A stretch of 64,000 nucleotides of DNA from Thainema sp. (lineage in GTDB: Bacteria > Cyanobacteriota > Cyanobacteriia > Phormidesmidales > Phormidesmidaceae): assembly GCA_052168235.1 (NCBI GenBank), contig JBQLZK010000010.1, positions 1-64,000 on the forward strand, read 5' to 3'. The translations under genes were made by a program, and so were the position numbers. Numbering within the stretch: the first letter of the stretch is position 1; each line of letters opens with the position of its first letter. Below the pieces are notes generated by a model. It was not told the DNA's origin, did no database searches, and saw nothing but the letters and a program-made list of their open reading frames with translations. Positions 3,265-61,786 of the stretch are shown here, piece after piece.

Positions 3265-3344
3265 CTTAGAGATTCTTCCTTAATTTCCATGAGACTGCTA
3301 CAAACCCAAAAAATCTTAAAACCCTTTATCTATCTTGGTTTGGG

Positions 3345-4826
3345 TTAATCAAAAATGCCAAATAGTCTAGCTGGAATGGAGAAGATAGACAACACCCTAC
3401 TTAGAGGAGCAACAACTGTATCTAATGTATCTGCGATACTAGCTGATGTAGATCGCTTCACAATGATAATGTCGTTGTTGCGTAACAACGGATTCATTTC
3501 TTCATCAATTCCTTCTGAGAAGTCTATCGGAACAGAACTGCGAGAGGCGGTACCGTCTGGATTCAACCGGACTAACTCAACAACGCCTCTACTAGCTCGG
3601 TTATTAAATCCTCCTGCCGCCAGTATACCCTGACTAAGCGGCGTGTTAGGGGACACTTCAACTACGCCAGGGCTCTCGACTTCTCCAACAACATTAATTC
3701 TGATCGTATCTGGCGAGAAGCTAGCTGCAGCAATTTCAGTAATTTCTTCAGGTAAAAAGGTTTCGGCTTTAGGAACAGAAACTGTGTCTCCTTCTTGTAA
3801 AGCAATGTCTTCTGTAATATTTCCGTCTTTTAATAATTGCCAGAGATTGACATTGATAATCTGTTCTTCGCCGTTACGGGTTCTGCGGTGTACCTGAATT
3901 TCACGAATATTGGCTTCAGGTTTAATTCCACCAGCAACTTGGATTGCTCGAGTTACGGTCGGTGGAGTGACAGAACCACCACTTCCACCTGGAACACCTG
4001 CCTCTCCAGTGCGTGCTGTACCCGTGACGGTGTAAGGTCCAGGCCGAAAGACTGCTCCAACAACCGCAATATTCAGCGGACGGCTTTCATCTGCTGCAAA
4101 GCTAGCGGCCGCTAATTGGAAAGACTCTTGAGGATCGAAGTTTTCTCGTGTAGGGATAAGTATCGTGTCTCCATCCCTCAAAGACATGTTGTATTGAAGA
4201 TTACCAGTTTCCAAAAACTGCCACAAATTAGACGTGATTGTTTGTTGAGTTCCCAGTCCTGTCTGCCTCTGGATAATAACCTGACGCAAATCAGCTGATT
4301 GTGTGACTCCTCCAGCAGCTTCTAAAGCGCTTACTAAGGAAGGAAACTGCGTTCCTTCCCGTTGTAAGGTGTAAGCTCCTGGATGAGCAACTTCACCTGC
4401 TATACCAATTCTTAAGGGACGAGGACTAACTAAAAGCAGATTAATAATAGGTCTACGAAGTCTTGTGGAGTACGCTTGAGAAATAGCTTCTTCTGCTTGC
4501 ACCAATGTTAATCCCGCTACAGAAACTTGGCCAACCATTGGGAGGCTTAACGTGCCATTGACCAAAACTTCATAGTCTCCACTATACTCAGGAATACGAA
4601 AAACATCTACTTGTACCTGATCACCAGCACCCAGAACATAGTCATCGGTAAATAGCTGACTAGGCAGAGGCTGATTGCTTTGTACAGACTCACTTGTTAT
4701 GGGCAATTGAAGAGGAGTTTGAGCTGTTGCCGCAGAAGATACATTAGATACTAGGAGCATCACAAATAGGCAGCCAAGAGTTTGAGGTAGCATCTGCAAG
4801 CGAAGGGAGGCACTTGGTGAAGTCAT
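3345..4826 (-). CDS. wza: Polysaccharide export protein (Wza/OPX, SLBB repeats)
   Basis: Poly_export motif DYVLGAGDQVQVDV...GTLSLPMVGQV; three SLBB-like repeats (GEV..PG.Y, AAGG); signal-like N-terminus; adjacent to wzc. Confidence 0.92.
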   Translation of the reverse strand: MTSPSASLRLQMLPQTLGCLFVMLLVSNVSSAATAQTPLQLPITSESVQSNQPLPSQLFTDDYVLGAGDQVQVDVFRIPEYSGDYEVLVNGTLSLPMVGQVSVAGLTLVQAEEAISQAYSTRLRRPIINLLLVSPRPLRIGIAGEVAHPGAYTLQREGTQFPSLVSALEAAGGVTQSADLRQVIIQRQTGLGTQQTITSNLWQFLETGNLQYNMSLRDGDTILIPTRENFDPQESFQLAAASFAADESRPLNIAVVGAVFRPGPYTVTGTARTGEAGVPGGSGGSVTPPTVTRAIQVAGGIKPEANIREIQVHRRTRNGEEQIINVNLWQLLKDGNITEDIALQEGDTVSVPKAETFLPEEITEIAAASFSPDTIRINVVGEVESPGVVEVSPNTPLSQGILAAGGFNNRASRGVVELVRLNPDGTASRSSVPIDFSEGIDEEMNPLLRNNDIIIVKRSTSASIADTLDTVVAPLSRVLSIFSIPARLFGIFD

Positions 4827-5281
4827 GACTATAACGTAGTGATCTCGGTAGATCTGTCGTAAATTTAATGAATCCAGAAATAAAGAAGCTACTTCAGCAT
4901 GAGTAACACTAACGCTAGACCTGCTGTAAAGCCTTGAAAGCGATCATCTTTGCTTATGTTAGCCAAAAAACTATGCCGTAAAAAACTAATCAACGTAAAA
5001 GCTATATCAATGCCATGTAATGTCGTTACTGTATGAAGTTTTTGTGAATGCTTCCCGAATCAATAAAATAGTCAGATTATTCACGGTTTCAGCTTAAGGA
5101 TAAGCCCTATAATTGACCCAGCCGAAATGAAGATCAATTAATAACAACAGAGAACAGCGAAGAGGCGTCCTGTCAGCTATCTTATAGATTTGTCATAGCC
5201 AGAATAAACTGACAGCTCGAGAATTCGATAGTTCAGGAATACTACTAATATTTTATTCTAAAGATTTATTCCAGTAGAGTT

Positions 5282-7045
5282 ATGAACAATCTTTTGAATT
5301 TCTCTAAATATGGATACCACATAGAGAAGGAACTAGGTGCTAATAGAGCTGGTGGGCGAGTAACTTATTTAGCAACGGATATTAGCACTAATCAAAAGGT
5401 TGTTATCAAACAGTTTCAGTTTGCGCAGTTTGGTTCTGATTGGTCTGACTATGATGCTCATAAGCGCGAAGTGGAGGTACTACATAATTTAAATCATCCT
5501 GGTATTCCACGCTACCTAAATTCTTTTCAAACTGCTGATGGATTTTGTATTGTTCAGGAATACAAGGCTGCTGAATCGTTAGTAGCGAGTCGTAGTTTTC
5601 ATCCTGAGGAGCTGAAAACGATTGCTATCAAGATACTTGAAATCTTAGCCTACTTGCAGAATCGCATACCACCCATTGTTCATAGAGATCTCAAGCCTGA
5701 CAATGTTTTAGTGGATGAAAATCTTAATGTTTTTCTAGTTGATTTTGGCTTTGCTCGCATTGGTGATGGAGAAGTTGGCGTTAGCAGCGTAGTTAAAGGA
5801 ACATTAGGGTTTATGCCTCCAGAACAGTTGTTTAATCGACAACTAACAGAAGCATCTGATCTGTATGGATTAGGAATGACTCTAATCTGTTTGCTGACAC
5901 ATACGAAAACAGATGATATTGGGACGTTAGTGGACATTAGCTACAGGGTAAAGTTTAAGCACTTAGTGCCTAAGCTAAGTTTCCCTTGGGTGAAATGGTT
6001 GGAAAAAATGGTGGAACCCCGAGTTGCAGATCGCTTTTTGAATGCTCGAGAGGCACTCAAAGCACTACCAAATTCACCTTTACATCCACCCGAAGTACGG
6101 CTGAGCCATTCTGAACTTCATTTACACGCAACGCGAATCAATCAGATCCTGACTCATTCTATAGAAATTAGAAACTTTGTGCCGGAAGTAATTTTAACTG
6201 GAGCATGGAAAGTCCAAAAGCACCCTAATGATCCACTAAATACTGATGGAAGTCATGTTTGGATTCATATTGATCCACAGAAGTTTGAAGAGAATCGGGC
6301 ACAATGCTGCATTGAAGTTGACACGAGCAAGCTTATGGCTGGCGAGATATATAGTCGAACATTGATACTGGATACCAATGCTTTTCCACAAACCTATTCA
6401 GTTCGCCTTCAAGTCCATACTGCCCGTATTCCTATTCGGTCAATGCAAAATTTTCTTCTACCGTTATGTAAGTTGTTTGTTTCTGTCTTGGTTGGAGGAC
6501 ATTTGCTGTTATGGATTGCTCTGTCTGAGACTCTGACGTATAGCCAACTTGGAGTTATTAATGCAGGGCTGTCTTTAGGAGCAATTGTTGGTCTTCAAGG
6601 AGCGGCTTGGACTCTCAAAAGCGCAGGAGCCATAAATGGCTCGAATTTGACAACTGTTACAACCGCTTGTTTAGGATTTTCCAGCTTGATCGGTATATGG
6701 CTGTTTATGGATAAATTATTTGGCTCTTGGGATATTATTTTCTATGGACTAACAGTTGGGATATTTGGTGGTTGGTTACTAGGTTTAGTTACAGGATTAA
6801 CTGTAGAACGCCTGTTGAAAGAACAAATACTCAAAACAACTGCGATCGCACTTGTTTTATTAACAAGTTTTTTGTCTATTAGCTTAGCAATAGGGCTAGT
6901 TACTGGATTTAGTCATCCGTTAGTTCTTCTCACAACAGCTATTTTGCTGATTGCATTGGGCTCTCTTCTCGTCAATGCATCTCTTGATCATACAAAGCGG
7001 ATTGCTTATTACCGAAGACTAGAGCGAAACCGAATTCGCCCTTAG
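5282..7045 (+). CDS. Hanks-type Ser/Thr protein kinase with C-terminal multi-TM region
   Basis: VVIKQF, HRDLKPDN, DFGFA and GTLGFMPPEQ kinase motifs; several hydrophobic helices in the last ~190 aa. Confidence 0.9.
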   Translation: MNNLLNFSKYGYHIEKELGANRAGGRVTYLATDISTNQKVVIKQFQFAQFGSDWSDYDAHKREVEVLHNLNHPGIPRYLNSFQTADGFCIVQEYKAAESLVASRSFHPEELKTIAIKILEILAYLQNRIPPIVHRDLKPDNVLVDENLNVFLVDFGFARIGDGEVGVSSVVKGTLGFMPPEQLFNRQLTEASDLYGLGMTLICLLTHTKTDDIGTLVDISYRVKFKHLVPKLSFPWVKWLEKMVEPRVADRFLNAREALKALPNSPLHPPEVRLSHSELHLHATRINQILTHSIEIRNFVPEVILTGAWKVQKHPNDPLNTDGSHVWIHIDPQKFEENRAQCCIEVDTSKLMAGEIYSRTLILDTNAFPQTYSVRLQVHTARIPIRSMQNFLLPLCKLFVSVLVGGHLLLWIALSETLTYSQLGVINAGLSLGAIVGLQGAAWTLKSAGAINGSNLTTVTTACLGFSSLIGIWLFMDKLFGSWDIIFYGLTVGIFGGWLLGLVTGLTVERLLKEQILKTTAIALVLLTSFLSISLAIGLVTGFSHPLVLLTTAILLIALGSLLVNASLDHTKRIAYYRRLERNRIRP

Positions 7046-7113
7046 CCAACAACTAGTCAAGGATTCAGCCACTATATGAAGCGCTAACATTGCTAGGATA
7101 ACCTTTATAAGAA

Positions 7114-7143
7114 GCAGGAAGCAGACAATGCTCTGCTTCCTGC
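7114..7143. terminator. Hairpin between convergent kinase and fcl, probably a terminator
   Basis: Perfect 12-bp stem GCAGGAAGCAGA / TCTGCTTCCTGC with a 6-nt loop. Confidence 0.6.
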
Positions 7144-7214
7144 AAAAGACGGAATAGAGTTGGTATTCTCCTACCTTTAATTCTAGTTTGAGTTGTTGGC
7201 AAGGCTACAGTCTG

Positions 7215-37123: not shown

Positions 37124-40100
37124 ATGACAACTTATTATGTTTCAGTAACAGGCATTGATGCCCCAGATCGCGATGGTTTATCTTGGGAAACTGCTTGGAA
37201 CTCTTTGGCTTATGCTAGCGATCGCGTATCTGCCGGCAATCACACCATTCAATTAGGGTCTGGAACCTTCATTGCAACAGAAACCGCACGTCCTCAAAGT
37301 GGCATTACGATCGCTGGGATGAGACGGGACGGAGAAACCAGAACAGAAATTCTCGCTACGTCTGACTGGAGCCTATCGTCCGATCCGAGAGACGGAACGG
37401 TTGCGCTGAATGAGTATTTAATTACCTTACAAAATGTTCAAGATATTACTATTCGAGATTTAACTCTGGCTTCCCACCCAGAACAGCGGATTACAGGGGG
37501 AGTTTATGGCGCAGCGGTAGATAACGTTGCAGTTGAGAGAACGGCAATTAAGGATTTTCGTTGGGCCGGGTTACAATTTGAGCTTTCAGAGAACCTAAAT
37601 ATTCGTAATAACTATATTGAAAATGCAAGTACTGAGAAATTTGGGTATACCAATGGTTTAATAAGTACCCGTTATATTAAAAACTCAGAGATTAGCCATA
37701 ACACTATTATTTCTACAGTTGAGCGAGGTTATGGCTATAAAGGGGCAGGCCATGAAAATGTTCGGATTGTCAATAATATTTTTAATCTAGAGCGTGGTTT
37801 TGCCATTGAATCTGCTCATGACAATGAATTTGGCGTAGAAATTGCATATAACTTTGCCAACCAAACCATTTCAATTCCAAAAGGTGGACAAGGAGCTGAT
37901 CCTGCCAATCGAGGATATGAATACTCATTTTGGATTCATCATAATCTTTTGACAGATAGTTATACCTTTGAAGGCCCCCGGAATCATCTACGGATTAGCC
38001 ATAACTATGTTCGTACTGATAGCACTGGAGGGAATTTTTATACTCACCATGGAGGAATTAATAATGGCCCTATTTGGATTCACAAAAATGTAATAGAAAA
38101 CGTTGATCGCGGTCTCATTTGGATGAATCAGGGACTTGCTGAAAATATTTATGTTTATCACAATACTGTTACTCTGGCAGATGCTGGCGATCGCGCTGGT
38201 GCAATTTTAACGGCCCCAAATCGGGAAGGTTTGGGTGAAAGCCTCAATAACTGGGTTGCACACAACAACATCTTTATTGCTCCTGAGAGTCAGCCTAGAG
38301 CCTTATTTCCTGATAATGGAGTGGGGAGCAAAATTACTGCAACCAATAATATCTTTCTAAATGTGACTGATATCCCAGAAGGGAATTATGTTGATGCTGA
38401 TCCAGGTTTTCTAAACACAGGCGATCGCCCCTGGCCCTTTTATACACCATCAACCTTAGAGAGCCTCATGGTTGATTCAGGTATAGATGTAGGGTTACCT
38501 TTCTCAGGGAGTGCCCCTGATATTGGCGCTTATGAATTAGGGGACGACAGTCCTTTTCCTATCCACGTCGACTTGCTCGATATCGAAACATTAATCAATG
38601 GCAATAAAGCTGATTTGCCTAATCTAGCCGTTCCAGTAGCTGCTGGCGAAGTCCTAACCTGGACCTATCAAATCACCAACTTAGGAACCACCATTTTTAG
38701 GGCTGCAGATCTGACTATTCTGGATGAGCAAGGATTAGTCCCCTTATTAGATGAGACTAGTGATGCCAACAATGATGGCTTGCTCCTGCCTGGTGAAACC
38801 TGGATTTATACAGCTAGTGATACGGCAAAAGATCTAACTACTATGGGAGACGGTAGCGCCACCTATCGCAAGGTTGGTAGCGTCATAGCAACTCGTAATC
38901 TCGAAGGCTTAATCGGTGCCGACACAAATGGTCACTTAGTGGCAACAGATGCTGGTTACTATCGAAACCCCTTTGAAGTTGGCTTACTTTTTAGCCTCAG
39001 TACCGACACCACTTTACAAGGACTTACGATTGCTGACGAAGATATTGTGCAGTATGACGGTAATCAGTTGTCTAAGTTTTTCGATGGGTCTGATGTTGGT
39101 TTAGAAACTGTAGAAATCAGTGCTTTTGATGTCATTAGTGAAAATGAAATTTTGCTGTCCTTTATGGAAACCATCACTCTAACAGGGGTAGGGACAGTTG
39201 AAGCAACCGACATTGTGAAGTTTACGGCATCTAGCCTGGGCGAGGTTACAGCAGGGACGTTTAGTTTGTATCTAGATGGTAGCGATGTTGGCTTAACGAG
39301 AAGTGGAGAGAATATTGATGCCTTAACTCAATTGCCAAACGGTTCTCTCCTAATTTCTACAAAAGGAGGGATAAAGGTTGCAGGAATGAGTGGTGCAGAT
39401 GAGGATGTTTTTCAATTTATTCCAACTTCATTGGGGGCAGATACTAAAGGTAGCTGGGTCTTTTTTTTTGATGGCAGTGATCTGGGGCTGGCAGACACTA
39501 ATGGTGAAGATATTGATGCAATAGGGATAACTGAAACAGGCCAATTTCTCCTCTCAACTACTGGCTCGTTTCAGGTACAGGGTCTATCCGGTGAAGATGA
39601 GGATGTTGCTGTTTTAACTATGTCCTCAATGGGCAATAATTCAGTTGGCAGCTTTGATCCAGCTCTATTTTTAGAGGGTAGCGAATTAGATATTCTAGGG
39701 GATATTTCAGGGCTGGATTATCTCAACCTGTCAGCAGGGCCGAACAGTAACACGATTCCCGATGCTCAAGATGATATTGCCGCAACAACTGAGGCGGCCC
39801 AACTTTTAATCGATGTGTTATCAAACGACGAAGATGCAGACGCTGACCTGCTCACAGTTAGCGCCATTAATGGGTCATCCACGGTGCCTAATACGACTCT
39901 GGCATTGGCCTCTGGTGCTTTAGTGACGGTTAATGCGGACGGCACCTTACTGTATAACCCTAATGCTCAATTTGCTCCTCTGGAGGAAGGGCAGACTGCT
40001 AGCGATACGTTTAGCTATACCGCCAATGATGGTAAAGGGGGGGAGAGTACAGCGACTGTCCTGGTCACTATTCTCGGAGTCGGCAATACGGCTAACCGCA

Positions 40101-40885
40101 GTCCTCTGGCAATAATGGATAGCGTGACAACGGATGAAGATAGAGTTCTGAATGGCAATGTTCTGTTGGACAACGGGAGTGGTTCGGATAGCGATCCAGA
40201 TGGAGATTTTTTGACGGTAGTTGCGATGAATGGAGATGAGACCGCGATCGCCCTGCCAACCCTGTTACCATCGGGAGCGTTGTTGATCCTGAATGTAGAC
40301 GGCACCTTTAACTATGATCCTCAGGGGGTGTACGAGGCTTTAGAAACTGGTGAAGTCGCCATAGACCGTTTTGATTACACCCTCAGTGATGGTCGTGGTG
40401 GCTTCAGTACGGCTACTGTAACGGTTGAAATAGTGGGGTTAGACGAGGCGATCGCCCCGATACGGTGGGAAGCGGAAGCCAGCCCTGACATTGTGAATTA
40501 TCGAACAGAAAATATTAGCGTGGCCTCTGGAGGACAAGTCCTGAGCTTATTTAAGCAGGGGAGTGATGAAGTAGGGCGTGCCTCGTTCGCATTTAATGCC
40601 CTGGCTGGTACCTACGACATCAAGATAGGCGCTTTTGATGAAGAGGATGGGTTAGCCCAATTCCAACTGCAGTTCTGGGATGCGGAAACCAATATTTCAA
40701 CTGATTTAGGGACGTTAACCCTCTCTAGTCAATTAGGGAGTAATGTACCCAATACCCAGACCTTGGTCGAGATCCTGGGAGCTAGCGCTATAAACTTCAC
40801 CCTGGGCGATCGCTTACTCATTACGGCCTTTGAACAAGGAAGCGAACACGCTCGGTTGGATTACATCGAACTCATTCCTGTGTAG
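37124..40885 (+). CDS. Large extracellular protein: N-terminal right-handed beta-helix (pectate-lyase-like fold), DGSD-type repeats, two cadherin/VCBS-like Ig domains, C-terminal CBM-like domain
   Basis: TYYVSVTG start, Asn-ladder I.NN.I repeats, APDIGAYE cap; DGSDVGL x3; DVLSNDEDAD...DTFSYT..DG.GG; IRWEAEAS...RLDYIELIPV. Confidence 0.72.
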   Translation: MTTYYVSVTGIDAPDRDGLSWETAWNSLAYASDRVSAGNHTIQLGSGTFIATETARPQSGITIAGMRRDGETRTEILATSDWSLSSDPRDGTVALNEYLITLQNVQDITIRDLTLASHPEQRITGGVYGAAVDNVAVERTAIKDFRWAGLQFELSENLNIRNNYIENASTEKFGYTNGLISTRYIKNSEISHNTIISTVERGYGYKGAGHENVRIVNNIFNLERGFAIESAHDNEFGVEIAYNFANQTISIPKGGQGADPANRGYEYSFWIHHNLLTDSYTFEGPRNHLRISHNYVRTDSTGGNFYTHHGGINNGPIWIHKNVIENVDRGLIWMNQGLAENIYVYHNTVTLADAGDRAGAILTAPNREGLGESLNNWVAHNNIFIAPESQPRALFPDNGVGSKITATNNIFLNVTDIPEGNYVDADPGFLNTGDRPWPFYTPSTLESLMVDSGIDVGLPFSGSAPDIGAYELGDDSPFPIHVDLLDIETLINGNKADLPNLAVPVAAGEVLTWTYQITNLGTTIFRAADLTILDEQGLVPLLDETSDANNDGLLLPGETWIYTASDTAKDLTTMGDGSATYRKVGSVIATRNLEGLIGADTNGHLVATDAGYYRNPFEVGLLFSLSTDTTLQGLTIADEDIVQYDGNQLSKFFDGSDVGLETVEISAFDVISENEILLSFMETITLTGVGTVEATDIVKFTASSLGEVTAGTFSLYLDGSDVGLTRSGENIDALTQLPNGSLLISTKGGIKVAGMSGADEDVFQFIPTSLGADTKGSWVFFFDGSDLGLADTNGEDIDAIGITETGQFLLSTTGSFQVQGLSGEDEDVAVLTMSSMGNNSVGSFDPALFLEGSELDILGDISGLDYLNLSAGPNSNTIPDAQDDIAATTEAAQLLIDVLSNDEDADADLLTVSAINGSSTVPNTTLALASGALVTVNADGTLLYNPNAQFAPLEEGQTASDTFSYTANDGKGGESTATVLVTILGVGNTANRSPLAIMDSVTTDEDRVLNGNVLLDNGSGSDSDPDGDFLTVVAMNGDETAIALPTLLPSGALLILNVDGTFNYDPQGVYEALETGEVAIDRFDYTLSDGRGGFSTATVTVEIVGLDEAIAPIRWEAEASPDIVNYRTENISVASGGQVLSLFKQGSDEVGRASFAFNALAGTYDIKIGAFDEEDGLAQFQLQFWDAETNISTDLGTLTLSSQLGSNVPNTQTLVEILGASAINFTLGDRLLITAFEQGSEHARLDYIELIPV

Positions 40886-41000: not shown

Positions 41001-43835
41001 CTAGCCCACAAACTCTACTGCACTGCTGTTTAAGTCCACACTAGCGTTGTTCTCAAAAACAGCCACTAAATCGAGCTTCGTGAACCATCCAAACCCTGAC
41101 TTGTTGTACAAGTAAGTATTGCCCTGAGAACTTATAGTTCGATATTCCTCGGCACTCCCATGCAATTGCAAAGTATCTTCTTGGGCATTGAAATCTTTGA
41201 CGATCGCATAATCCCAACCTAAGAACCCTTTGTAATAAGTTCCATGGGCATTCCCTAGAACAAACTTGTCTGAACCTTCACCACCAATCAACACATCTCT
41301 CTCAAGCAAGCCTCTGGTAAAACCGCTCACCCCATCCAGATAGTCATTGCCAGTACCGCCATTTAGATGGTCAGAACCGCCACTACCCAATAGCGTATCG
41401 TCACCCTCATTACCCAATAAGATGTCACGGCCAAGTTCACCATTCAGGTAATCATTCCCGGCTCCTCCAGTTAAATGATTGCTGAAGGGAGTTGCGTTCA
41501 GAACACTCACCTCAAAGGCAGTATCAATCGATGCGCCATCCGTATCTGTAGCCCGAATAGTTAACGCTGAAGCGCCTTGACTGCCGTGGGCATAGTCCAA
41601 CGTCAAGGTACCCGCAACGTTATCGATCGCCACACTGGTAAACATACTGCTGTTGGTATTTTCAACCACTTCAAACGTTAAGTCAGTGCTGGCATCTTCA
41701 ATATCACTAAAGACACTCAAGAGATCAATGACAGTATTGGGAGCATTGTCAGTCACAGTAAAGCCTGCAATGCCAGTAGTTGTAGGAGCATCATTCACGG
41801 CATTCACCAGGACAGACACCGTTGCTGTACTGGTTTCGCTACCGTCACTAATGACATACTCAAAACTCGCTTCCCCACTGAAATTAGCATCAGGGGTAAA
41901 CACCACGTTCCCATCAATGTCCAGGCTGACGGTACCGTTGCTGGCATTGCCTACTTCAACAATCTCCAGGGTTTCCAGACCCTCTGGATCAATATCATTG
42001 CTGAGCAAATCAATTGCACTGAGCGTGATTACCATATCCTCATCGGTCACAAACCCATCGTTCACAGCCGTCGGTGGAGTATTGGGAACTTCGCCAACAT
42101 ACTGAAAGTAAGTACCATTCAGGTCAAGGTCAGCCGCAATGGTTTGTGTCAGAACAGCAATGCGTTCGCCATTTTTCAGGAGATGGGTATCAGCATCCAC
42201 CTGAACCAAGCTGTATTCAGCCGACGTACCATTCAGTTGAATCTGATCCTGGAAGGATTTGAAATCTTCAAGGATGGCATAGTCTGCATCGCCTGCAGCC
42301 ACATAATAAGCTTGGTTCTCATCACCTAAGACGAAAATATCACTGGTAGAACCGCCATTCAGCGTATCAATTTCACCAGCCCCAGCAACAATACTGTCAG
42401 TGCCGTTCAGCACATCACCGCCACCAAAACCAAGCAGGGTATCATTACCTGCTCCCCCAATCATGGTATCAGCGCCGCCGCCGCCATCGATGAAATCATC
42501 TCCTGCGCCACCAGTCAGAATATCGTCACCGTTGCCTCCACTAATGAAGTCTTTAGCTGCGTCTCCATTAATGATGTCGTTCCCGTCTTCACCCAGGAGA
42601 GTATCGATACCGTCTCCCCCAGAGATCGTGTCGTTACCGCCACCACCACTGATGTTGTCAAATCCATCGGTACCGTTGAGTTCCTCATCAGCAGCAGTGC
42701 CTACCAAATTAACGCCAGAGCCAAGGTAGGAAAAGTAACTGGCCGTGAGGTCAAGGTCAGCCGCTATGGTGTTGCTTAGAATCGCGACTAATTCGCTGCC
42801 CCTTAGCAAGTGAGTGTTTGCGCCTACCTGCACCAAACTATAGTCACTGGGCAAACCATTGAGCTGGATAGAATCCTGGAAGGATTTGAAATCTTCAATC
42901 AGGGCATAGTCATTCTCGCCTGCAGCAACGTAATAGGCCTGGTTCTCATCCCCAAGGATAAAGAGATCACTGCTGGAACCGCTGTTAAGGGTATCAATCT
43001 CTCCGGCCCCAGCAGCATTGCTGTCAGAACCATTCAAGACATCACTGCCGCCAAAAGCCAGAACAGTATCATTACCCTCGCCACCAATCAGGGTGTCATT
43101 ACCACCACCACCATCAAGCAGGTCATCACCAGCACCGCCCTTCAGGCTGTCATTACCATTTCCGCCATTAACCAGGTCGTTGTCATCACCACCATCAATA
43201 TTGTCATCGCCGTCTTCACCCAGCAGGGTATCAACCCCTGCGCCTCCGGTGATGGTATCGTTACCGCCACCGCCGGCAATATTGTCAAATCCATCGGTAC
43301 CCGTCAACTCCTCGGCGGCGGCTGTCCCAACTAAGCTGACACCAGAGCCGAGATAAGTGAAGTAACTGGCATTCAGATCAAGATCGGTGGCAGTCACTCC
43401 CACCAAAACAGCTACCAAATCTCCAGCATTAAGGAGATGGGTATCCGCTCCTTCCTGGGTCAAGCTGTAGTCACTGGGAAGTCCATGCAACTGAATGGTG
43501 TCCTGAAAGAACTTAAAATCGTCAATCAGAACATAATCCGCAGCTCCCGCTGCAATATAGTAGGCTTGGGCTTTGTCGCCCAGAATAAAGGTGTCGCTAC
43601 TTGAACCACCTTTGAGAAGGTCAATCTCCCCGGCCCCAGCAGCGGTGGCATCCGTGCCATTAAGGACATCCCCTCCGCCAAAACCTTGCAGCTCATCATT
43701 ACCGGAACCTCCGATTAGTGTATCGGCTCCGGATCCTCCATCCAGGTAGTCATCGCCTGCACCTCCATTAATGAGGTCATTGCCAGTAGTCCCGACCAGA
43801 TTGTCGTTACCGCCAGTTCCATTAATCTCACTCAT
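41001..43835 (-). CDS. RTX (hemolysin-type Ca-binding repeat) surface protein with cadherin-like domains
   Basis: Many GGxGxDxLx nonamers; three homologous internal units (627-nt period between units 2 and 3); PTAVNDGFVTDED and VNDAP Ig/cadherin domains. Confidence 0.88.
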   Translation of the reverse strand: MSEINGTGGNDNLVGTTGNDLINGGAGDDYLDGGSGADTLIGGSGNDELQGFGGGDVLNGTDATAAGAGEIDLLKGGSSSDTFILGDKAQAYYIAAGAADYVLIDDFKFFQDTIQLHGLPSDYSLTQEGADTHLLNAGDLVAVLVGVTATDLDLNASYFTYLGSGVSLVGTAAAEELTGTDGFDNIAGGGGNDTITGGAGVDTLLGEDGDDNIDGGDDNDLVNGGNGNDSLKGGAGDDLLDGGGGNDTLIGGEGNDTVLAFGGSDVLNGSDSNAAGAGEIDTLNSGSSSDLFILGDENQAYYVAAGENDYALIEDFKSFQDSIQLNGLPSDYSLVQVGANTHLLRGSELVAILSNTIAADLDLTASYFSYLGSGVNLVGTAADEELNGTDGFDNISGGGGNDTISGGDGIDTLLGEDGNDIINGDAAKDFISGGNGDDILTGGAGDDFIDGGGGADTMIGGAGNDTLLGFGGGDVLNGTDSIVAGAGEIDTLNGGSTSDIFVLGDENQAYYVAAGDADYAILEDFKSFQDQIQLNGTSAEYSLVQVDADTHLLKNGERIAVLTQTIAADLDLNGTYFQYVGEVPNTPPTAVNDGFVTDEDMVITLSAIDLLSNDIDPEGLETLEIVEVGNASNGTVSLDIDGNVVFTPDANFSGEASFEYVISDGSETSTATVSVLVNAVNDAPTTTGIAGFTVTDNAPNTVIDLLSVFSDIEDASTDLTFEVVENTNSSMFTSVAIDNVAGTLTLDYAHGSQGASALTIRATDTDGASIDTAFEVSVLNATPFSNHLTGGAGNDYLNGELGRDILLGNEGDDTLLGSGGSDHLNGGTGNDYLDGVSGFTRGLLERDVLIGGEGSDKFVLGNAHGTYYKGFLGWDYAIVKDFNAQEDTLQLHGSAEEYRTISSQGNTYLYNKSGFGWFTKLDLVAVFENNASVDLNSSAVEFVG

Positions 43836-56285: not shown

Positions 56286-57521
56286 ATGTCGAAGGAAATC
56301 CTGCATTTAGGTGAACTGGTCGAGCAATGCCAAGCAAAAATTGTTGAACAATGGACAGAATCCGTTCAGCAGCATCGAGACATTGAAGCCGCTGATGAGT
56401 TGCCACCAATGGCAATTCGGGATCATGTGCCGTCCGTTTTAAGCGCGATCGCAGATTGCCTCAAGCAGTATGACTACAGTAATGCGGTTGAAGCTGTAGC
56501 CAGTGCCAGCCTAAGTCATGGCGTTTTAAGAGCCAAACAGGGATTTGATCCCACAGAGGTTGTACAGGAATATCGGCTGCTGCGCCAAGCCGTGATTCGA
56601 AACCTAGAGCCGTATTTGGAGAGCTTAACACCGTCCCAGATTTTTTCGGGCATGAACGTGGTCAATGAAGTCGTTGATTTAGCGTTAACGAAATGCTTTG
56701 AGAGCTATGTTGAATCGCGTCTCCAAGAGCTAGAGCAGCTTAAGGAGCAGGTCAAACTGACGACTGGGGAACTCTCGCAGCTGGTTCACACCAGCCAAGA
56801 ACAGGTTGCGTTCCTGGCGCATGAACTCAAGACTCCGCTGAACTCGATCATCGGCTACTCTGAGCTGCTACTGCGTCAGCAGCAGGGAGCACTGAGCCAA
56901 TCCGTTGCGCTGGATAACCTTGATAGTTTGGAGCGGGTACTGCGGAATGGGCAGCGGTTACTGAAGCTGGTGAATCAGGTTTTAGAGTTTTCCTACTACG
57001 AAAACCAATCGGTTCAGTTAGACATTCAGTTGGTTCAGCCGCGCCAGCTGCTGCAAACGGTGGTTGAGACGTTAGAACCACTGGCCAGCAAGAAAGGACT
57101 GGACATTATCATAGACTGCGATCGCGCTCCCGAAACGGTGGAGACCGACCCGCTGAAGCTAGAGCAGGTGCTGATCAATCTCGGCAGCAACGCCATTCGC
57201 TATACCGAAAAGGGCCATGTGCAGCTGACGGCAGTCGCCGTTGCGGATCAGCAGTGGCAACTTGCGATCGCGGATACGGGAATCGGCATGGATACTGAAA
57301 CGCAGAAAAAAATCTTTGAGCCGTTTTTCCGCGCCCAGTCGCCAGACGCACAGAAGAATTTGCTCTGGAAAGGCACGGGTTTAGGACTGGCAATCACGGC
57401 CAAGATTGTGGTTTTGCTCAAGGGAGAACTTGAAGTTGTCTCTAAACTGAATGACGGTTCCACATTTACCGTTCAGCTACCGACCGCCTATGGTTCGCTA
57501 GATAAAGCTGATATTGATTGA
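56286..57521 (+). CDS. Soluble sensor histidine kinase with RsbRD-N-like N-terminal domain
   Basis: H-box LAHELKTPLNSI, N-box NLGSNAIRYT, DTGIG, FEPF, GTGLGL; N-terminal HGVLRAKQGFD..EVVQEY. Confidence 0.9.
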   Translation: MSKEILHLGELVEQCQAKIVEQWTESVQQHRDIEAADELPPMAIRDHVPSVLSAIADCLKQYDYSNAVEAVASASLSHGVLRAKQGFDPTEVVQEYRLLRQAVIRNLEPYLESLTPSQIFSGMNVVNEVVDLALTKCFESYVESRLQELEQLKEQVKLTTGELSQLVHTSQEQVAFLAHELKTPLNSIIGYSELLLRQQQGALSQSVALDNLDSLERVLRNGQRLLKLVNQVLEFSYYENQSVQLDIQLVQPRQLLQTVVETLEPLASKKGLDIIIDCDRAPETVETDPLKLEQVLINLGSNAIRYTEKGHVQLTAVAVADQQWQLAIADTGIGMDTETQKKIFEPFFRAQSPDAQKNLLWKGTGLGLAITAKIVVLLKGELEVVSKLNDGSTFTVQLPTAYGSLDKADID

Positions 57522-57545: not shown

Positions 57546-59906
57546 TCAAATTTCAGTCTCTGGTTCTTCAAGGCACACCGCCACGCGGGCAAATTTCAGG
57601 CCAGTTACTCCTTGCAATGGCTCAACAGCACCTTGAGTGATCTTCTCGCCCACCCAGCCTTCCCGCTGCAGATAGCGCACGTATTGACGGTACTCTTCCC
57701 ACTCCTCTGGCGTAGAGTAAACGATGGTCAACATGCCGGGTTGGGTAATGCGAGTGCGGGTTTCGGCATCCACCGCTTTATCGATGCGCTTCTTAACGAT
57801 TTCATAACGCGTATCGCGCGTGCCGCGCACGTCGAACAGCCGCTCAGTCGTTTCGTCATGGATAATATCGACCGTACTCACCTGCACCAGCACTAAATGA
57901 GTAATTTCAAGCTGGGTTTGAAACCGCTGCTTCAACGTAAACGACACCCGCGCGCAGTCACAGACGGCCCGCAACTGCTCATAGCGCAAGCTGCGTAGAT
58001 GAAAGGGCTTGAAGGTCGGATCAATCGATTCCCCGACATAAATCATGTGGTCAATACCGTCGGTCGTCTCAATATCACAGTAGTGCTTGACCACCTGCTG
58101 CATTTTCTCCTGCCAAGCCATCCAGGTATCGCGCAGCAGGCCGTTGATTTGCTGGATGATTTGGTCGTAGGCTTGGCGAGCCTGATAGACGCAGCCGTGG
58201 TCATTGTCACAAGCCGCTTCGTAGGCTTCCACTGCCGCCAATGCCTGGGGGCTACACTGCCGGAAGTAGGCAAAATGCTTTTCTAAATGTTGTTCTAGAT
58301 AGCGAGTCAGCGTCACCTCAGCATCAACGGTGACCCCCTCGTGTAGCTGCGCGATATGCTCGTCTAAATCCTGCTTGAGCTGCTGTCCTAAAGCAGTTTC
58401 CGTACTGTCACAAACCGCATTGATGATGTCAATGCCCAGCTGAAACTGGTGCAGCAAGTCGGTTTGAATCGCTCGATTGCGCTCATTAGACGATCCCCGA
58501 ATATCCGAAATGCCGTAGAGAGGGTAGACATCATTGAACACTATTGTTTCCGGCGGCAGTCCCCAACTGCGGCGTTCCGCTTCTTGGACAAACCGCCACT
58601 CGACAGCGGGGTGAATTTTGGTAAACCGCCGCTGGATAGCGTGACGCAGAGCTGCTGTCAGTGCCGGAATGAGCGTCGCCGCATTGCGGCAGTCCACGCT
58701 GTCAAAATGGTACGCCTGCTGACTGGTTAATCCCACAACGCCGATCAGCTTACTCTGTGCTGCTGATGTTTCGAGCATGGATTGAACTACTAAGGGAATG
58801 ATCAACAGCGATCGCACTCCCTTATCCTGGATAAACTGTTCGCATCGGGTCGGACAATCAGCCTGCAAATTGGGAATATTCAGCACCTGTGCCGCTTCTG
58901 CCGCTGTAAAGAAGTGAGATCCTTGCAGTTCCGCCATTGGAAATGCAGTGGCATCGTCTTGGAGATTTTCTAGCCCAATGATCAGACGGGCCTGATCATT
59001 TTCGGCACTGAGGATGAAGCTGTTATCGGCCCGGAAAAGGGTGCGTACAAACTTATTAACCCGATGCATTTTGCGCGGTTGCAGCACCGACTCTCGATCA
59101 ATCAAAAGCTGAATCAGGCTATGAATCGTTTGCCGCTCGGTGACTTCCACTCCTTCCAGCAGCAGCACGCCCTCCACCTGATAGCGCTCTAGATCGAGCC
59201 GATCTACCAGAGCTTGAACCTGTTCCGGGGCCAGCAGTTGGCCAATCAGCTCTGAGCGGCTGGACTGGGGGGTAACGCCTAAATCATTAAACTCGTCTGA
59301 TAGCGGATCAGAGAGCTTGACTCGCATGCGATCGCTGCGTAGACGCAGCTCTAACTGCACCGTCTGCTCTTTGGTGGGGGACAGATTAACCAGCAGCGTG
59401 TCATTCAACAAACGCTCAAATTCGGGCGATTGAATATGGTAGTACTGCTGTAAAACAGCATAGAGAACATGGCGACGATACAGTTGCTGGAAAGCTTCCC
59501 GTTCAGCGGTTGAGAGCAGTTCCAGCAAGTTCCAAGCCGAAGTCGTCGAATCCGCAGTCGAATCTGGATCAGCTTGCTTAGCCAGTAACGGCGCAATGAT
59601 TTGCTGGAGATGATTATTAACGGAGCGAACTTGAAAGGTTTTCAGATCAATCACAGCCATCAGCAAATGGCTATGATCGTTAAAATGAGACAGCCAGCCT
59701 AGATTTTGATAATACTCGTCGAGTGCCGCTAAATCAGCCGTCGTTTGTTCATCTAGCGCTCCTTGATGGGTGAGCTTGCCCCGCAGGCGTTCCAAGATCG
59801 CGTCAATGGCAATATCATAGGCAGCATCCCGCTCGGATCCACTGAACGTGTGGGCCTGAGCCACCTGTGACAACCGATTCGATGACAGAAACGATGACGT
59901 GGACAT
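57546..59906 (-). CDS. GAF-domain protein with a C-terminal domain resembling a divergent class III nucleotide cyclase
   Basis: GAF: GVRSLLIIPL...LIGVVGLTS...F; C-terminal SDIRGSS, TTDG, FDVRG, KKRIDKA, PGMLTIVYS, LQGVTGLK; ATG at 59906 (MSTSS) preferred over 60185. Confidence 0.7.
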   Translation of the reverse strand: MSTSSFLSSNRLSQVAQAHTFSGSERDAAYDIAIDAILERLRGKLTHQGALDEQTTADLAALDEYYQNLGWLSHFNDHSHLLMAVIDLKTFQVRSVNNHLQQIIAPLLAKQADPDSTADSTTSAWNLLELLSTAEREAFQQLYRRHVLYAVLQQYYHIQSPEFERLLNDTLLVNLSPTKEQTVQLELRLRSDRMRVKLSDPLSDEFNDLGVTPQSSRSELIGQLLAPEQVQALVDRLDLERYQVEGVLLLEGVEVTERQTIHSLIQLLIDRESVLQPRKMHRVNKFVRTLFRADNSFILSAENDQARLIIGLENLQDDATAFPMAELQGSHFFTAAEAAQVLNIPNLQADCPTRCEQFIQDKGVRSLLIIPLVVQSMLETSAAQSKLIGVVGLTSQQAYHFDSVDCRNAATLIPALTAALRHAIQRRFTKIHPAVEWRFVQEAERRSWGLPPETIVFNDVYPLYGISDIRGSSNERNRAIQTDLLHQFQLGIDIINAVCDSTETALGQQLKQDLDEHIAQLHEGVTVDAEVTLTRYLEQHLEKHFAYFRQCSPQALAAVEAYEAACDNDHGCVYQARQAYDQIIQQINGLLRDTWMAWQEKMQQVVKHYCDIETTDGIDHMIYVGESIDPTFKPFHLRSLRYEQLRAVCDCARVSFTLKQRFQTQLEITHLVLVQVSTVDIIHDETTERLFDVRGTRDTRYEIVKKRIDKAVDAETRTRITQPGMLTIVYSTPEEWEEYRQYVRYLQREGWVGEKITQGAVEPLQGVTGLKFARVAVCLEEPETEI

Positions 59907-60307
59907 GGGTTGAACCCCTTGAAGCGTGCGTTGGCATGGAACTCCTGCGCTAGTCTGTACCCTAGAGGGCTGTAGGGAACGAAGAAACGGTATTTTGTAT
60001 AGCTTAACCAAACCCTTTAGAATAAATGAAGAAGTCATATAAATTCCTTGACAATGGCTGCCGTTGATATCAAGCCAATCCAAGCTCGCTGATATTAAGC
60101 TTTCATTGTGGAATACCTGCGCTGACTGAAATCTTTGTTCTTCATGCAAATCCGTGGCAAGGGCGTTGTAAATGCGATCGCACACGGATCTGCAACCACG
60201 TCAGTTATCCAGACGTGACAATTTCTCCGCGTGAGCTACGGAGCAAATTACAGGGCAGTTAGCGGCAGGTTTTGTTGTCTTAGAGTTAACGCGTTTGGCC
60301 TATATCC

Positions 60308-61786
60308 ATGTTTGATGCGCTTGCTGATCGGTTAGAAGACGCCTGGAAAAAGTTACGAGGTCAAGACAAGATCTCGGAGTCGAATATTCAAGAAGCACTG
60401 AGGGAAGTGCGGCGAGCACTGCTAGAAGCGGATGCCAACTTCCAGGTTGTCAAAGAATTTGTTGCAGAAGTTCAGGAGAAGGCCAAAGGCGCAGAAGTCA
60501 TTTCGGGCGTGCGGCCTGACCAACAGTTCATCAAGATTGTCCATGAAGAACTGGTTGAGGTGATGGGGGAAACCAACGTTCCCCTGGCTCATGCCCATAC
60601 AGCGCCCACGATTGTGCTAATGGCGGGTCTGCAAGGTACAGGCAAAACCACCGCTTCCGCCAAGCTGGCCCTGCACCTGCGCAAGCAAGACCGCAATGCG
60701 CTGCTGGTGGCGACAGACGTTTATCGACCCGCCGCGATCGATCAGCTGATTACCCTCGGTAAACAAATCGATACGCCCGTGTTTGAACTGGGTTCAGACG
60801 CCAACCCGGTTGAGATTGCCAAGCAGGGTGTTGCCTACGCCAAAGAACAGGGAATTGACACCGTCATCATTGACACCGCTGGTCGTCTGCAAATTGACCA
60901 GGACATGATGGCCGAACTGGCCGAAGTTAAAAAAGCGGTGCAGCCGGATGAAGTGCTGCTAGTGGTAGACGCGATGACGGGTCAGGAAGCGGCAAACCTC
61001 ACCCGCACGTTCCATGAAGAAATTGGCATTACGGGTGCCATCCTAACTAAGTTAGACGGTGACTCGCGCGGTGGTGCGGCGTTATCGGTACGGCGGATTT
61101 CGGGACAGCCGATCAAGTTTGTCGGCATGGGCGAAAAGGTGGAAGCGCTCCAGCCGTTCTATCCCGACCGGATGGCCTCCCGCATCTTGGGGATGGGTGA
61201 CGTTCTCACCCTGGTGGAAAAGGCGCAGGAAGAAGTTGATCTGGCCGATGCCGAACAGATGCAGGAAAAAATCCTGTCGGCTCAGTTTGACTTTACCGAC
61301 TTCCTGAAGCAGATGCGCCTGCTGAAAAATATGGGTTCTCTGGGCGGCATCATGAAGATGATTCCCGGTATGAACAAGATTTCTAGCGATCAGCTAGAGC
61401 AGGGTGAATCGCAGCTCAAGCGGGCTGAAGCGATGATCAACTCTATGACGATGGAAGAGCGGCGCAATCCCGATTTGCTGTCCAACTCTCCCAGTCGCCG
61501 CCGTCGGATTGCCAAAGGTGCAGGCTTCAAAGATAACGATGTCGGCAAGCTGGTCAGTGATTTTCAAAGAATGCGATCGCTGATGCAGCAAATGGGCCAA
61601 GGTCGCATGGGCTTCCCTGGCATGGGTGGTTTTCCCGGCATGGGTGGCGGCGGAATGCCTGGTATGGGCATGCCCGGTATGGGCGGTGGTGGTGGCCCCC
61701 AACCCGGCTGGCGGGATTACGGTGGTGGCGGTCAGTCCAAAAAGAAAAAGAAGGGCAAGAAAAAGAAAGGGTTTGGTCAGTTATAA
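60308..61786 (+). CDS. ffh: Signal recognition particle protein Ffh
   Basis: GLQGTGKTT, DVYRPAA, DTAGR, TKLDGDSRGG, Met-rich M domain, Gly/Met-rich tail. Confidence 0.97.
   Translation: MFDALADRLEDAWKKLRGQDKISESNIQEALREVRRALLEADANFQVVKEFVAEVQEKAKGAEVISGVRPDQQFIKIVHEELVEVMGETNVPLAHAHTAPTIVLMAGLQGTGKTTASAKLALHLRKQDRNALLVATDVYRPAAIDQLITLGKQIDTPVFELGSDANPVEIAKQGVAYAKEQGIDTVIIDTAGRLQIDQDMMAELAEVKKAVQPDEVLLVVDAMTGQEAANLTRTFHEEIGITGAILTKLDGDSRGGAALSVRRISGQPIKFVGMGEKVEALQPFYPDRMASRILGMGDVLTLVEKAQEEVDLADAEQMQEKILSAQFDFTDFLKQMRLLKNMGSLGGIMKMIPGMNKISSDQLEQGESQLKRAEAMINSMTMEERRNPDLLSNSPSRRRRIAKGAGFKDNDVGKLVSDFQRMRSLMQQMGQGRMGFPGMGGFPGMGGGGMPGMGMPGMGGGGGPQPGWRDYGGGGQSKKKKKGKKKKGFGQL

Follow-up and report, generated by a model that had tools for sequence, protein, structure and literature searches.

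A gene in a 64,000-nucleotide stretch of the Thainema sp. genome (contig JBQLZK010000010.1, positions 1 to 64,000; hereafter the window) probably encodes a soluble signalling enzyme, in which a sensor part made of a PAS-like and a GAF domain is predicted to regulate a divergent class III cyclase domain whose putative product is a nucleotide signal. A sequence-only reading of the window had claimed an unrecognised, sensor-linked family of cyclase fold at this gene, and that claim is supported by a confident template-free structural model, by known cyclases as its structural neighbours and by a near-invariant pair of Asp residues. What is new here is that the predicted fold, although of class III cyclase type, contains a large insert and has an altered catalytic helix, with a product that is itself putative.

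Predicted fold and putative metal site

The last 361 residues of the 786-residue protein (426-786; fragment numbering plus 425 gives protein numbering) were aligned with 80 relatives of 33-66% identity and modelled with AlphaFold2 without templates, which gave a mean predicted local distance difference test score (pLDDT) of 94.6 and a predicted template modelling score (pTM) of 0.90, with no segment below a pLDDT of 50. In fragment numbering, the model begins with a helix (8-22), a strand (30-45) and a second helix (47-76), which lead into four insert helices (80-97, 102-126, 128-140 and 151-178). These are followed by a hairpin (184-188/192-199), a helix (209-237), three strands (242-248, 254-259 and 264-268), a helix at 274-280 that spans residues 696-710 of the protein in a model of its full length, a strand (300-305), a helix (308-323) and the last two strands (327-336 and 346-352). 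Once the four insert helices are set aside, the predicted topology is that of the cyclase homology domain. The part of the fold that follows the β2-β3 hairpin comprises, in order, α2, the β4-β5 arm, the FDVRG strand, α4 (RYEIVKKRIDKA), the QPG strand, α5 and the terminal hairpin (LQGVTGLKFARV).

The motifs that had been picked out by eye after the GAF domain were all located in the translation, in the claimed order and places (Table 1), and in the predicted secondary structure each falls on the element that the by-eye assignment calls for. LFDVRG is a strand that ends in an invariant Gly, QPG and the hydrophobic strand after it correspond to β7, and the helical insertion, put at ~110 residues in the sequence-only reading, spans ~104 residues in the model. 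The motifs are the best-conserved stretches of the family alignment across phyla and lie on the elements that bear the matching cyclase motifs, so their occurrence goes beyond chance. At the site of the first motif, canonical cyclases of the same genome read SDIRGYT, SDLRGFT and CDIRGFT, and this protein reads SDIRGSS; its DIRGSS loop resembles the phosphate-binding DIxGF/ST loop.

Two independent structural searches were made with this model. Foldseek returned class III cyclases from the Protein Data Bank (PDB) in every row among the matches listed, with the guanylyl cyclase Cya2 (2w01) as the best (E 6.5e-5), nine rows at E <= 1e-3 and target-normalised TM-scores of 0.42-0.57 on single-domain chains. 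The AlphaFold and Foldseek comparison that the sequence-only reading had proposed for the C-terminal end thus gave a predicted cyclase palm fold with cyclase neighbours. VIA-align was run against 48,161 representative chains and its best 50 rows were considered; 24 of the top 25 were cyclases of adenylyl, guanylyl or pyrimidine type (Z 8.4-11.6). Chain 2w01_A was aligned over 186 of 201 residues (Z 11.6, rmsd 3.5), and further Z-scores were 11.6 for 6fht_B, 11.5 for 3r5g_B, 11.2 for both 8jsz_B (a cUMP synthase) and 1wc1_A, and 10.8 for 1cs4_A.

The likeness to Cya2 (2w01), CyaC (1wc1), Pseudomonas aeruginosa CyaB (3r5g) and Rv1900c (1ybt) covers nearly the whole catalytic domain (Z 10.2-11.6 over 164-186 residues, rmsd 3.0-3.5). 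Features in common with these bacterial class III cyclases are the acidic residues at the end of β1 and in the β2-β3 hairpin, the D-I-x-G-S/F-S/T loop and the P-G motif before β7. The domain differs from them in its low identity (6-16%), the absence of a PF00211 match and the insert of ~104 residues in four helices after α1; the canonical positions lack the Asn/Arg pair and are not fixed for the Lys/Glu and Asp/Thr/Cys residues of base specificity. Compared with one of the genome's own cyclases, α2 and the link between α4 and β7 are each ~11 residues longer here.

Conservation was counted in an 81-sequence alignment of the C-terminal domain. The two Asp residues that had been proposed to bind metal each lie, in the model, on the expected element, and each is kept in 80 of the 81 members: D468 (58503-58505) is the third-last residue of β1, with I-R-G-S-S after it where α1 begins, and D616 (58059-58061) lies in the turn of the β2-β3 hairpin. 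Three positions on, D619 (58050-58052) is Asp or Glu in 80/81. In the model, D468, D616 and D619 occupy the positions at which known cyclases bind their two metals. When aligned with CyaC by VIA, the domain pairs model residue 30 with chain residue 1004, so that, if β1 contains no gap, fragment D43 (D468) falls on CyaC residue 1017, which we take to be the first metal Asp of that enzyme; this is a consistency check and not a measurement.

Around these acidic positions, β1 and α1 keep R470 (74/81), S472 (80/81), S473 (73/81), R476 (81/81) and D483 (81/81), and the β2-β3 region keeps H608 (79/81), G617 (81/81) and Y623 (81/81). The α4 region is conserved at G695 and K705 (both 81/81), R700, R707 and K710 (each 80/81) and D709 (79/81), and the C-terminal part at R719 (80/81), P723 (78/81), Lys or Arg 771 (71/81) and R774 (81/81). 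R476, R700, K705, R707, K710, R719 and R774 make up a near-invariant cluster of basic residues. P0134 is alone in lacking D468; its position 616 is Asn, and it differs in other ways as well. This cyanobacteria-like protein of 717 residues (47% identity) reads ALRMGDF in place of the SDIRGSS loop and ENG in place of the TDG hairpin; judged from its sequence, it is likely to be an inactive paralogue in which both putative metal Asp residues were lost together.

Family distribution and gene neighbourhood

A phmmer search of 1.84 billion cluster representatives (clusters of 50% identity) identified 926 relatives of the C-terminal domain at E <= 1e-3, 701 at E <= 1e-10 and 518 at E <= 1e-30. Of the 150 that were listed, nearly all are 700-880 residues long with the domain at the C-terminus, and the recurring architecture is an N-terminal domain, a GAF domain and the C-terminal domain in ~790 residues. 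A word-indexed search found 4043 relatives among 8000 candidates that were scored. Every named relative was called either 'GAF domain-containing protein' or 'hypothetical protein', and Pfam analysis of 24 relatives indicated a GAF domain or nothing (one also has an N-terminal ACR_tran domain), with a cyclase domain in none. The 347 relatives shorter than 432 residues seem to be fragments, most of them coming from contigs of 1-3 kb, and are therefore no evidence for a free-standing domain.

Among GTDB species genomes, 541 stretches carry a relative, and 80 of these loci, 55 of them cyanobacterial (58-70% identity) and 25 from other phyla (34-39%), were used for the analysis of gene context. The cyanobacterial loci come mostly from Microcoleus, Nodosilinea, Oscillatoria, Spirulina and Coleofasciculus, with Stenomitos, Phormidium, Lyngbya, Tychonema and Leptolyngbyaceae also named; the named carriers are thus mostly filamentous, non-heterocystous genera (Microcoleus, Leptolyngbya-like, Nodosilinea, Spirulina, Coleofasciculus). 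The remaining loci belong to Bacteroidota, Ignavibacteria, Gemmatimonadota, Verrucomicrobia, Rokubacteria, Poribacteria, Entotheonella and Hyphomicrobiales. Within a sample of Cyanobacteriota, the family was found in 23 of 301 genomes and 13 of 132 genera, and none of the 37 genomes of one large family in this sample carries the domain.

Three single genomes depart from the common arrangement. A metagenome-assembled genome (MAG) of Hyphomicrobiales (L086) carries two tandem family paralogues, at 2093-4627 and 4684-7200 (844 and 839 residues). The domain lies within an open frame of 1383 residues in a Bacteroidota genome (G340, C1:3519663-3520763), which may be a fusion with additional domains. 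The family gene of a complete cyanobacterial genome (G029, C1:6064675-6065751) has an in-frame TAA within the C-terminal domain, possibly the mark of a pseudogene or a sequencing error.

The C-terminal domain may already be catalogued under PF27174. ESM Atlas returned only clusters labelled PF27174 'YeeD' (score 0.91), and nothing when that family was skipped; PF27174.1 is also the precomputed Pfam label on many short non-cyanobacterial homologues. A full-text literature search for 'PF27174' gave 0 papers, and a search for the family itself found no paper in a coverage that excludes most subscription journals.

Gene context is heterogeneous in 24 non-cyanobacterial loci, and among the cyanobacterial ones only synteny with ffh recurs (17/55), together with TPR, RTX-repeat, Uma2 and kinase genes. 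In Bacteroidota the family is associated with PycTM (PF18967), a membrane receptor/effector that cyclic pyrimidines activate in Pycsar (PMC11224242). A protein with HD and PycTM domains adjoins the family gene in two of the 25 non-cyanobacterial loci (L090 and L092), both from Flavobacteriales. When 251 genomes of Bacteroidota, the phylum of Moheibacter, were sampled, the family was present in 38 and PF18967 in 105, and PF18967 occurred in all 38 family-positive genomes vs 67 of the 213 family-negative ones (Fisher p 4e-17, a value that is overstated because related genomes are not independent). With the gene span approximated as the matched domain plus 1300 nt, a PycTM domain lies at most 1 kb from the family gene in 17 of the 38 genomes, 15 of them in convergent orientation, and 1-15 kb away in a further eight, making 25/38 within 15 kb; it is farther off on the same contig in five and on another contig in eight. 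This link hints, independently, at a nucleotide signal as the product of the family. The PycTM occurrences in Bacteroidota also suggest that this module, familiar from defence against phages, has housekeeping roles.

Open frames with PF18967 in Bacteroidota come in two sizes, ~190-230 and ~380-470 residues; the copies that adjoin the family gene all have 391-428 residues, and that of L090 carries an N-terminal HD domain according to Pfam. Other neighbours were seen in one or two loci. Directly downstream on the same strand, a Cytophagaceae MAG (L085, 7213-8610, plus strand) encodes a protein with a cyclic nucleotide monophosphate (cNMP)-binding domain and a histidine-kinase ATPase, which is a single case, and Marinifilum (L088:7276-9483) and Ancylomarina (L091:7127-9376) have a downstream, same-strand gene for a patatin phospholipase with an Omp85-type barrel.

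The PycC cyclases of Pycsar (8jsz, 8jsf and 7r65) share the class III fold with the C-terminal domain (Z 9.5-11.2) and have unusual base specificity. Two catalytic Asp residues, D102 and D146, are given for EaPycC (PMC11224242). Unlike PycC, the family is single-copy, conserved within lineages and fused to sensor domains; unlike Pycsar, the Bacteroidota partner combines HD with PycTM, no cNMP-binding domain was found in it, and the Thainema genome is without a PycTM gene. PADLOC matched the GAF/cyclase-fold protein to no defence family. A Pycsar anti-phage system was rejected as an identity for this locus on the lack of PF18967 in the genome and of a PADLOC match, and on its neighbours, a histidine kinase gene and ffh.

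Weighing the reading and its alternatives

Several results weigh against an active cyclase, starting with the sequence searches. Pfam searches of the protein, two sub-fragments included, gave no match to PF00211 at E <= 1 or <= 10, and a PF00211 scan of the whole genome found 18 other cyclase domains and not that of the GAF protein. An NCBIfam scan of the protein had no match, and comparison with PDB sequences, by phmmer and with a profile, matched GAF structures only and yielded nothing for the C-terminal 360 residues. When the family profile was aligned by hhalign with 12 canonical cyclase domains of the same genome, the result was not significant for the whole domain (E 0.2), for its C-terminal part (E 0.16) or for the domain minus the insert (E 0.03-0.04); the region of the first motif alone gave E 0.017, with D468 weakly placed on the canonical metal Asp. 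With E values of 0.017-0.2, the fold is not discoverable by sequence statistics alone.

These insignificant profile comparisons, like the modest Foldseek E values (6.5e-5 at best), would be expected if the model were misleading and the likeness a generic ferredoxin-like β-α-β-β-α-β one with no evolutionary or functional link to cyclases. We consider this very improbable, since 180-210 residues align, including the arm, α4, β7 and the C-terminal hairpin, and the motifs fall on matching elements in the same order. The best VIA-align Z of 11.6 also compares with the 7-8 that the program states as typical of a best match where no true one exists, and its non-cyclase rows (15 and 26-50) are generic helical proteins aligned over ~46-150 only, that is, over α1 and the helical insert.

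Canonical class III cyclases have an Asn and an Arg on α4, four and eight residues after the conserved Gly, and their base specificity is set at two positions, by a Lys or Glu that precedes the second Asp by four residues and by an Asp, Thr or Cys that precedes the conserved Gly by three. None of these is fixed in the family. The position of the transition-state Asn is T699 here and variable (I 40, T 12, V 12 and A 11 of 81), and that of the transition-state Arg is I703, with Ile in 78/81; the register of α4 comes from sequence and secondary structure, without superposition. Conserved polar residues stand nearby at other spacings (Asn or Asp 698 in 79/81, R700 and K705), and the Arg in VKKRIDKA, which had been called kept, is likewise not at the canonical spacing from the Gly. 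At the first base-specifying position, 612, this protein has Ile, whereas 44/81 members have Lys and 9/81 have Arg; the second, 692, is Asp here and in 54/81. A weak hint at GTP had been drawn from the Glu before the second Asp; this does not hold, as the canonical position is Ile612, and Glu613 is variable. With the canonical residues for specificity and transition state replaced, the sequence allows no assignment of the base, whether purine or pyrimidine. The second putative metal ligand, moreover, could be either D616 or D619 in the model.

The missing Asn/Arg pair and specificity residues, with the lack of a PF00211 signal, also bear on the main rival, in which the domain is a pseudo-cyclase. 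It would then be a scaffold without catalysis, or a regulatory module that binds nucleotides, and its conserved surface would bind a partner protein or, without turnover, a nucleotide. Cyclase-like folds without catalysis exist, and one of them, AdvA of Acinetobacter baumannii (7sua), is among the structural neighbours found here (Z 9.4); like the present domain, it has a highly divergent cyclase-like fold missed by sequence searches. A preprint describes AdvA as a non-catalytic, essential cyclase-like division protein without catalytic residues and dimerisation arm and with an extra C-terminal helix (bioRxiv 10.64898/2026.04.03.716176). Unlike AdvA, the family keeps its acidic pair, both positions in 80/81, along with the DIRGSS loop and the β4-β5 arm. 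P0134 lost both Asp residues at once, as expected of residues that cooperate, and the link to PycTM in Bacteroidota fits a small molecule that is made and sensed better than it fits a scaffold. On balance we think a pseudo-cyclase unlikely.

Retention of the metal site alongside replacement of every canonical substrate and transition-state residue would also suit an active palm-fold enzyme with a chemistry other than 3',5'-cyclisation of one nucleoside triphosphate. Options include a linear or cyclic oligonucleotide, a 2',3'-cyclic or modified nucleotide and nucleotide hydrolysis, with the insert reshaping the acceptor site. The polar insert residues E530, Y562, Y574, R577 and Q603 are kept in 76-81 of the 81 members (Q603 in all), and the Bacteroidota partner carries an HD phosphohydrolase domain and not a classical cNMP-binding domain, both of which favour this alternative. 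Its structural neighbours, however, are mononucleotide cyclases, and the protein has no GG(D/E)EF motif (its hairpin reads ETTDGID) and no GGDEF Pfam match. No GGDEF or Cas10-type palm appeared among the 50 VIA rows, and no GGDEF among the Foldseek matches listed, which does not exclude such a relationship. Altogether we regard a different chemistry as rather improbable, and continue to favour a sensor-regulated divergent cyclase.

Gene context, too, gives limited help in Cyanobacteriota. No neighbour is conserved across phyla in the 80 loci. PF18967 had no match in the Thainema genome (99.99% complete), where no homologue of the HD-PycTM protein of L090 was found either, and it was above cut-off in none of five other cyanobacterial carriers, so the argument from context comes from another phylum. 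At the putative pocket, the cyanobacterial branch has FDVRGTRDTRYE vs FDVDGAYNxRYE in the others, and HYCD[IVL]E vs HYFEKxx; the changes are K612 to Ile, Val or Leu, Y697 to Arg or Lys, N698 to Asp and D694 to Arg or Lys. Because of these substitutions and the absence of a PycTM-type partner, the cyanobacterial receptor, and possibly the product, may differ. One can go further, tentatively and with the balance tipped against it, and suppose an undescribed clade that makes a messenger other than cAMP or cGMP in non-defence signalling, with HD-PycTM reading or degrading it in Bacteroidota and a different product or receptor in cyanobacteria.

Sensor part, locus and implications

A model of the full-length protein was built from a 76-sequence alignment (pLDDT 87.4), and its top Foldseek match in the PDB was 6fht, a phytochrome-linked adenylate/guanylate cyclase (E 5.7e-11). 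The PAS-like and GAF part matched phytochrome PAS-GAF bidomains at E 1e-7 to 1e-8. GAF is the single Pfam domain of the protein (PF01590, 25.9 bits vs a cut-off of 22.4), and the family profile matched solved GAF structures at E values down to 7.5e-6. Before the cyclase fold lies a conserved helix in which F439 never varies and each of H432, V435 and W437 occurs in at least 90% of members. VIA alignments to 6fht, 6r3q and 6pas begin at model residue 1 and so include this helix, which lies where cyclases have their 'transducer element'. A bilin photosensor of the phytochrome or cyanobacteriochrome kind was considered for the GAF domain and is unsupported, because its Cys residues are not conserved (C351 in 15/76 and C355 in 11/76 relatives). 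The two form a CPTRC pair at 58842-58856 that is not conserved family-wide.

The order of PAS-GAF sensor, connecting helix and cyclase domain is that of 6fht, whose VIA alignment spans model residues 1-356; unlike 6fht, the protein has no PHY domain. Anabaena CyaB1 and CyaB2 (for CyaB2, PMC4411481) are likewise soluble proteins in which a GAF sensor precedes an output of class III fold. In contrast to their tandem GAF domains, which bind cAMP, and their canonical PF00211 domain, the protein described here has one GAF domain after a PAS-like domain, and a divergent catalytic domain.

In the mechanism that we propose, the PAS-like/GAF module would sense a ligand or signal and relay it through the helix that leaves the GAF domain, by way of which the cyclase domain would be regulated. 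The catalytic domain would act as a dimer and, by two-metal chemistry, turn a nucleoside triphosphate into a nucleotide messenger that is cyclic or non-canonical in some other way. When the C-terminal domain was modelled as a two-copy complex with ATP and Mg, the scores were 0.40, 0.00 and 0.01 (mark 0.42), which speaks neither for nor against dimerisation.

The gene is single-copy in the Thainema genome. Its start is uncertain, because a GTG at 60185 in the same frame would lengthen the protein by 93 residues that are matched, among 387 proteins compared, only by the 97%-identical relative P0002, and residues 1-28 of the full-length model are disordered (pLDDT < 50); this is without effect on the cyclase-fold finding. 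Between the end of the convergent histidine kinase gene, whose product has an RsbRD_N sensor domain, and the stop codon of the GAF/cyclase-fold gene lie 24 nt. Kinase-type genes are near family genes in 26 of the 80 loci and look generic. Further neighbours in the window encode a GHL5 glycoside hydrolase, a DUF218 protein and a Tab2-like protein, and two very long open reading frames lie upstream of the studied region, at 37124-40885 (plus strand, 1253 residues) and 41001-43835 (minus strand, 944 residues). The G+C content of the window is ~0.38-0.43 at 1-12 kb and 20-31 kb vs 0.48-0.55 at 12-18 kb and 40-64 kb, which may reflect a mosaic origin or large non-coding or repeat regions.

Table 1. 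Features of the GAF/cyclase-fold gene and its neighbours, in window coordinates
Feature	Position	Strand	Residues	Basis or remark
GAF/cyclase-fold gene	57546..59906	-	786 + stop, from ATG	frame without internal stop
PAS-like alpha/beta sensor domain	59097..59669	-	~80-270	secondary structure of full-length model; no Pfam match
GAF domain	58623..59078	-	~277-428 (Pfam match 287-409; long exit helix 403-428)	PF01590, model
Conserved pre-cyclase helix, consensus IHPxVEWRF	58566..58610	-	433-447	alignment, model, VIA
Predicted cyclase fold, part 1: strand β1 ending SDIRGSS, then helix α1	58404..58544	-		model
First motif, PLYGISDIRGSS	58488-58523	-	462-473	
Four-helix insertion between α1 and β2	58092..58403	-	502-605	model
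Predicted cyclase fold, part 2: β2-β3 hairpin (TDGID) to terminal hairpin	57573..58091	-		model
DIETTDG	58056-58076	-	611-617	
LFDVRG	57822-57839	-	690-695	
Helix, TRDTRYEIVKKRIDKA	57774-57821	-	696-711	
QPGMLTIVYS	57714-57743	-	722-731	
EPLQGVTGLK	57594-57623	-	762-771	
Histidine kinase, RsbRD_N-HisKA-HATPase	56286..57521	+		convergent neighbour
ffh	60308..61786	+		divergent neighbour

Few signalling enzymes have been studied as well as class III cyclases, which genome surveys count by PF00211. The C-terminal domain has the predicted fold and the putative metal site but is invisible to that profile, so members of this family are annotated as 'GAF domain-containing protein' only. They amount to hundreds of clusters in Cyanobacteria, Bacteroidota, Ignavibacteria, Gemmatimonadota, Verrucomicrobia and other groups. 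If they are active, the second-messenger inventories of the phyla that carry them are incomplete. A new product or specificity code is plausible, because the specificity residues are replaced and a conserved helical insert lies beside the active site, and the link to PycTM in Bacteroidota suggests that a module of phage defence also serves, or arose from, routine signalling.

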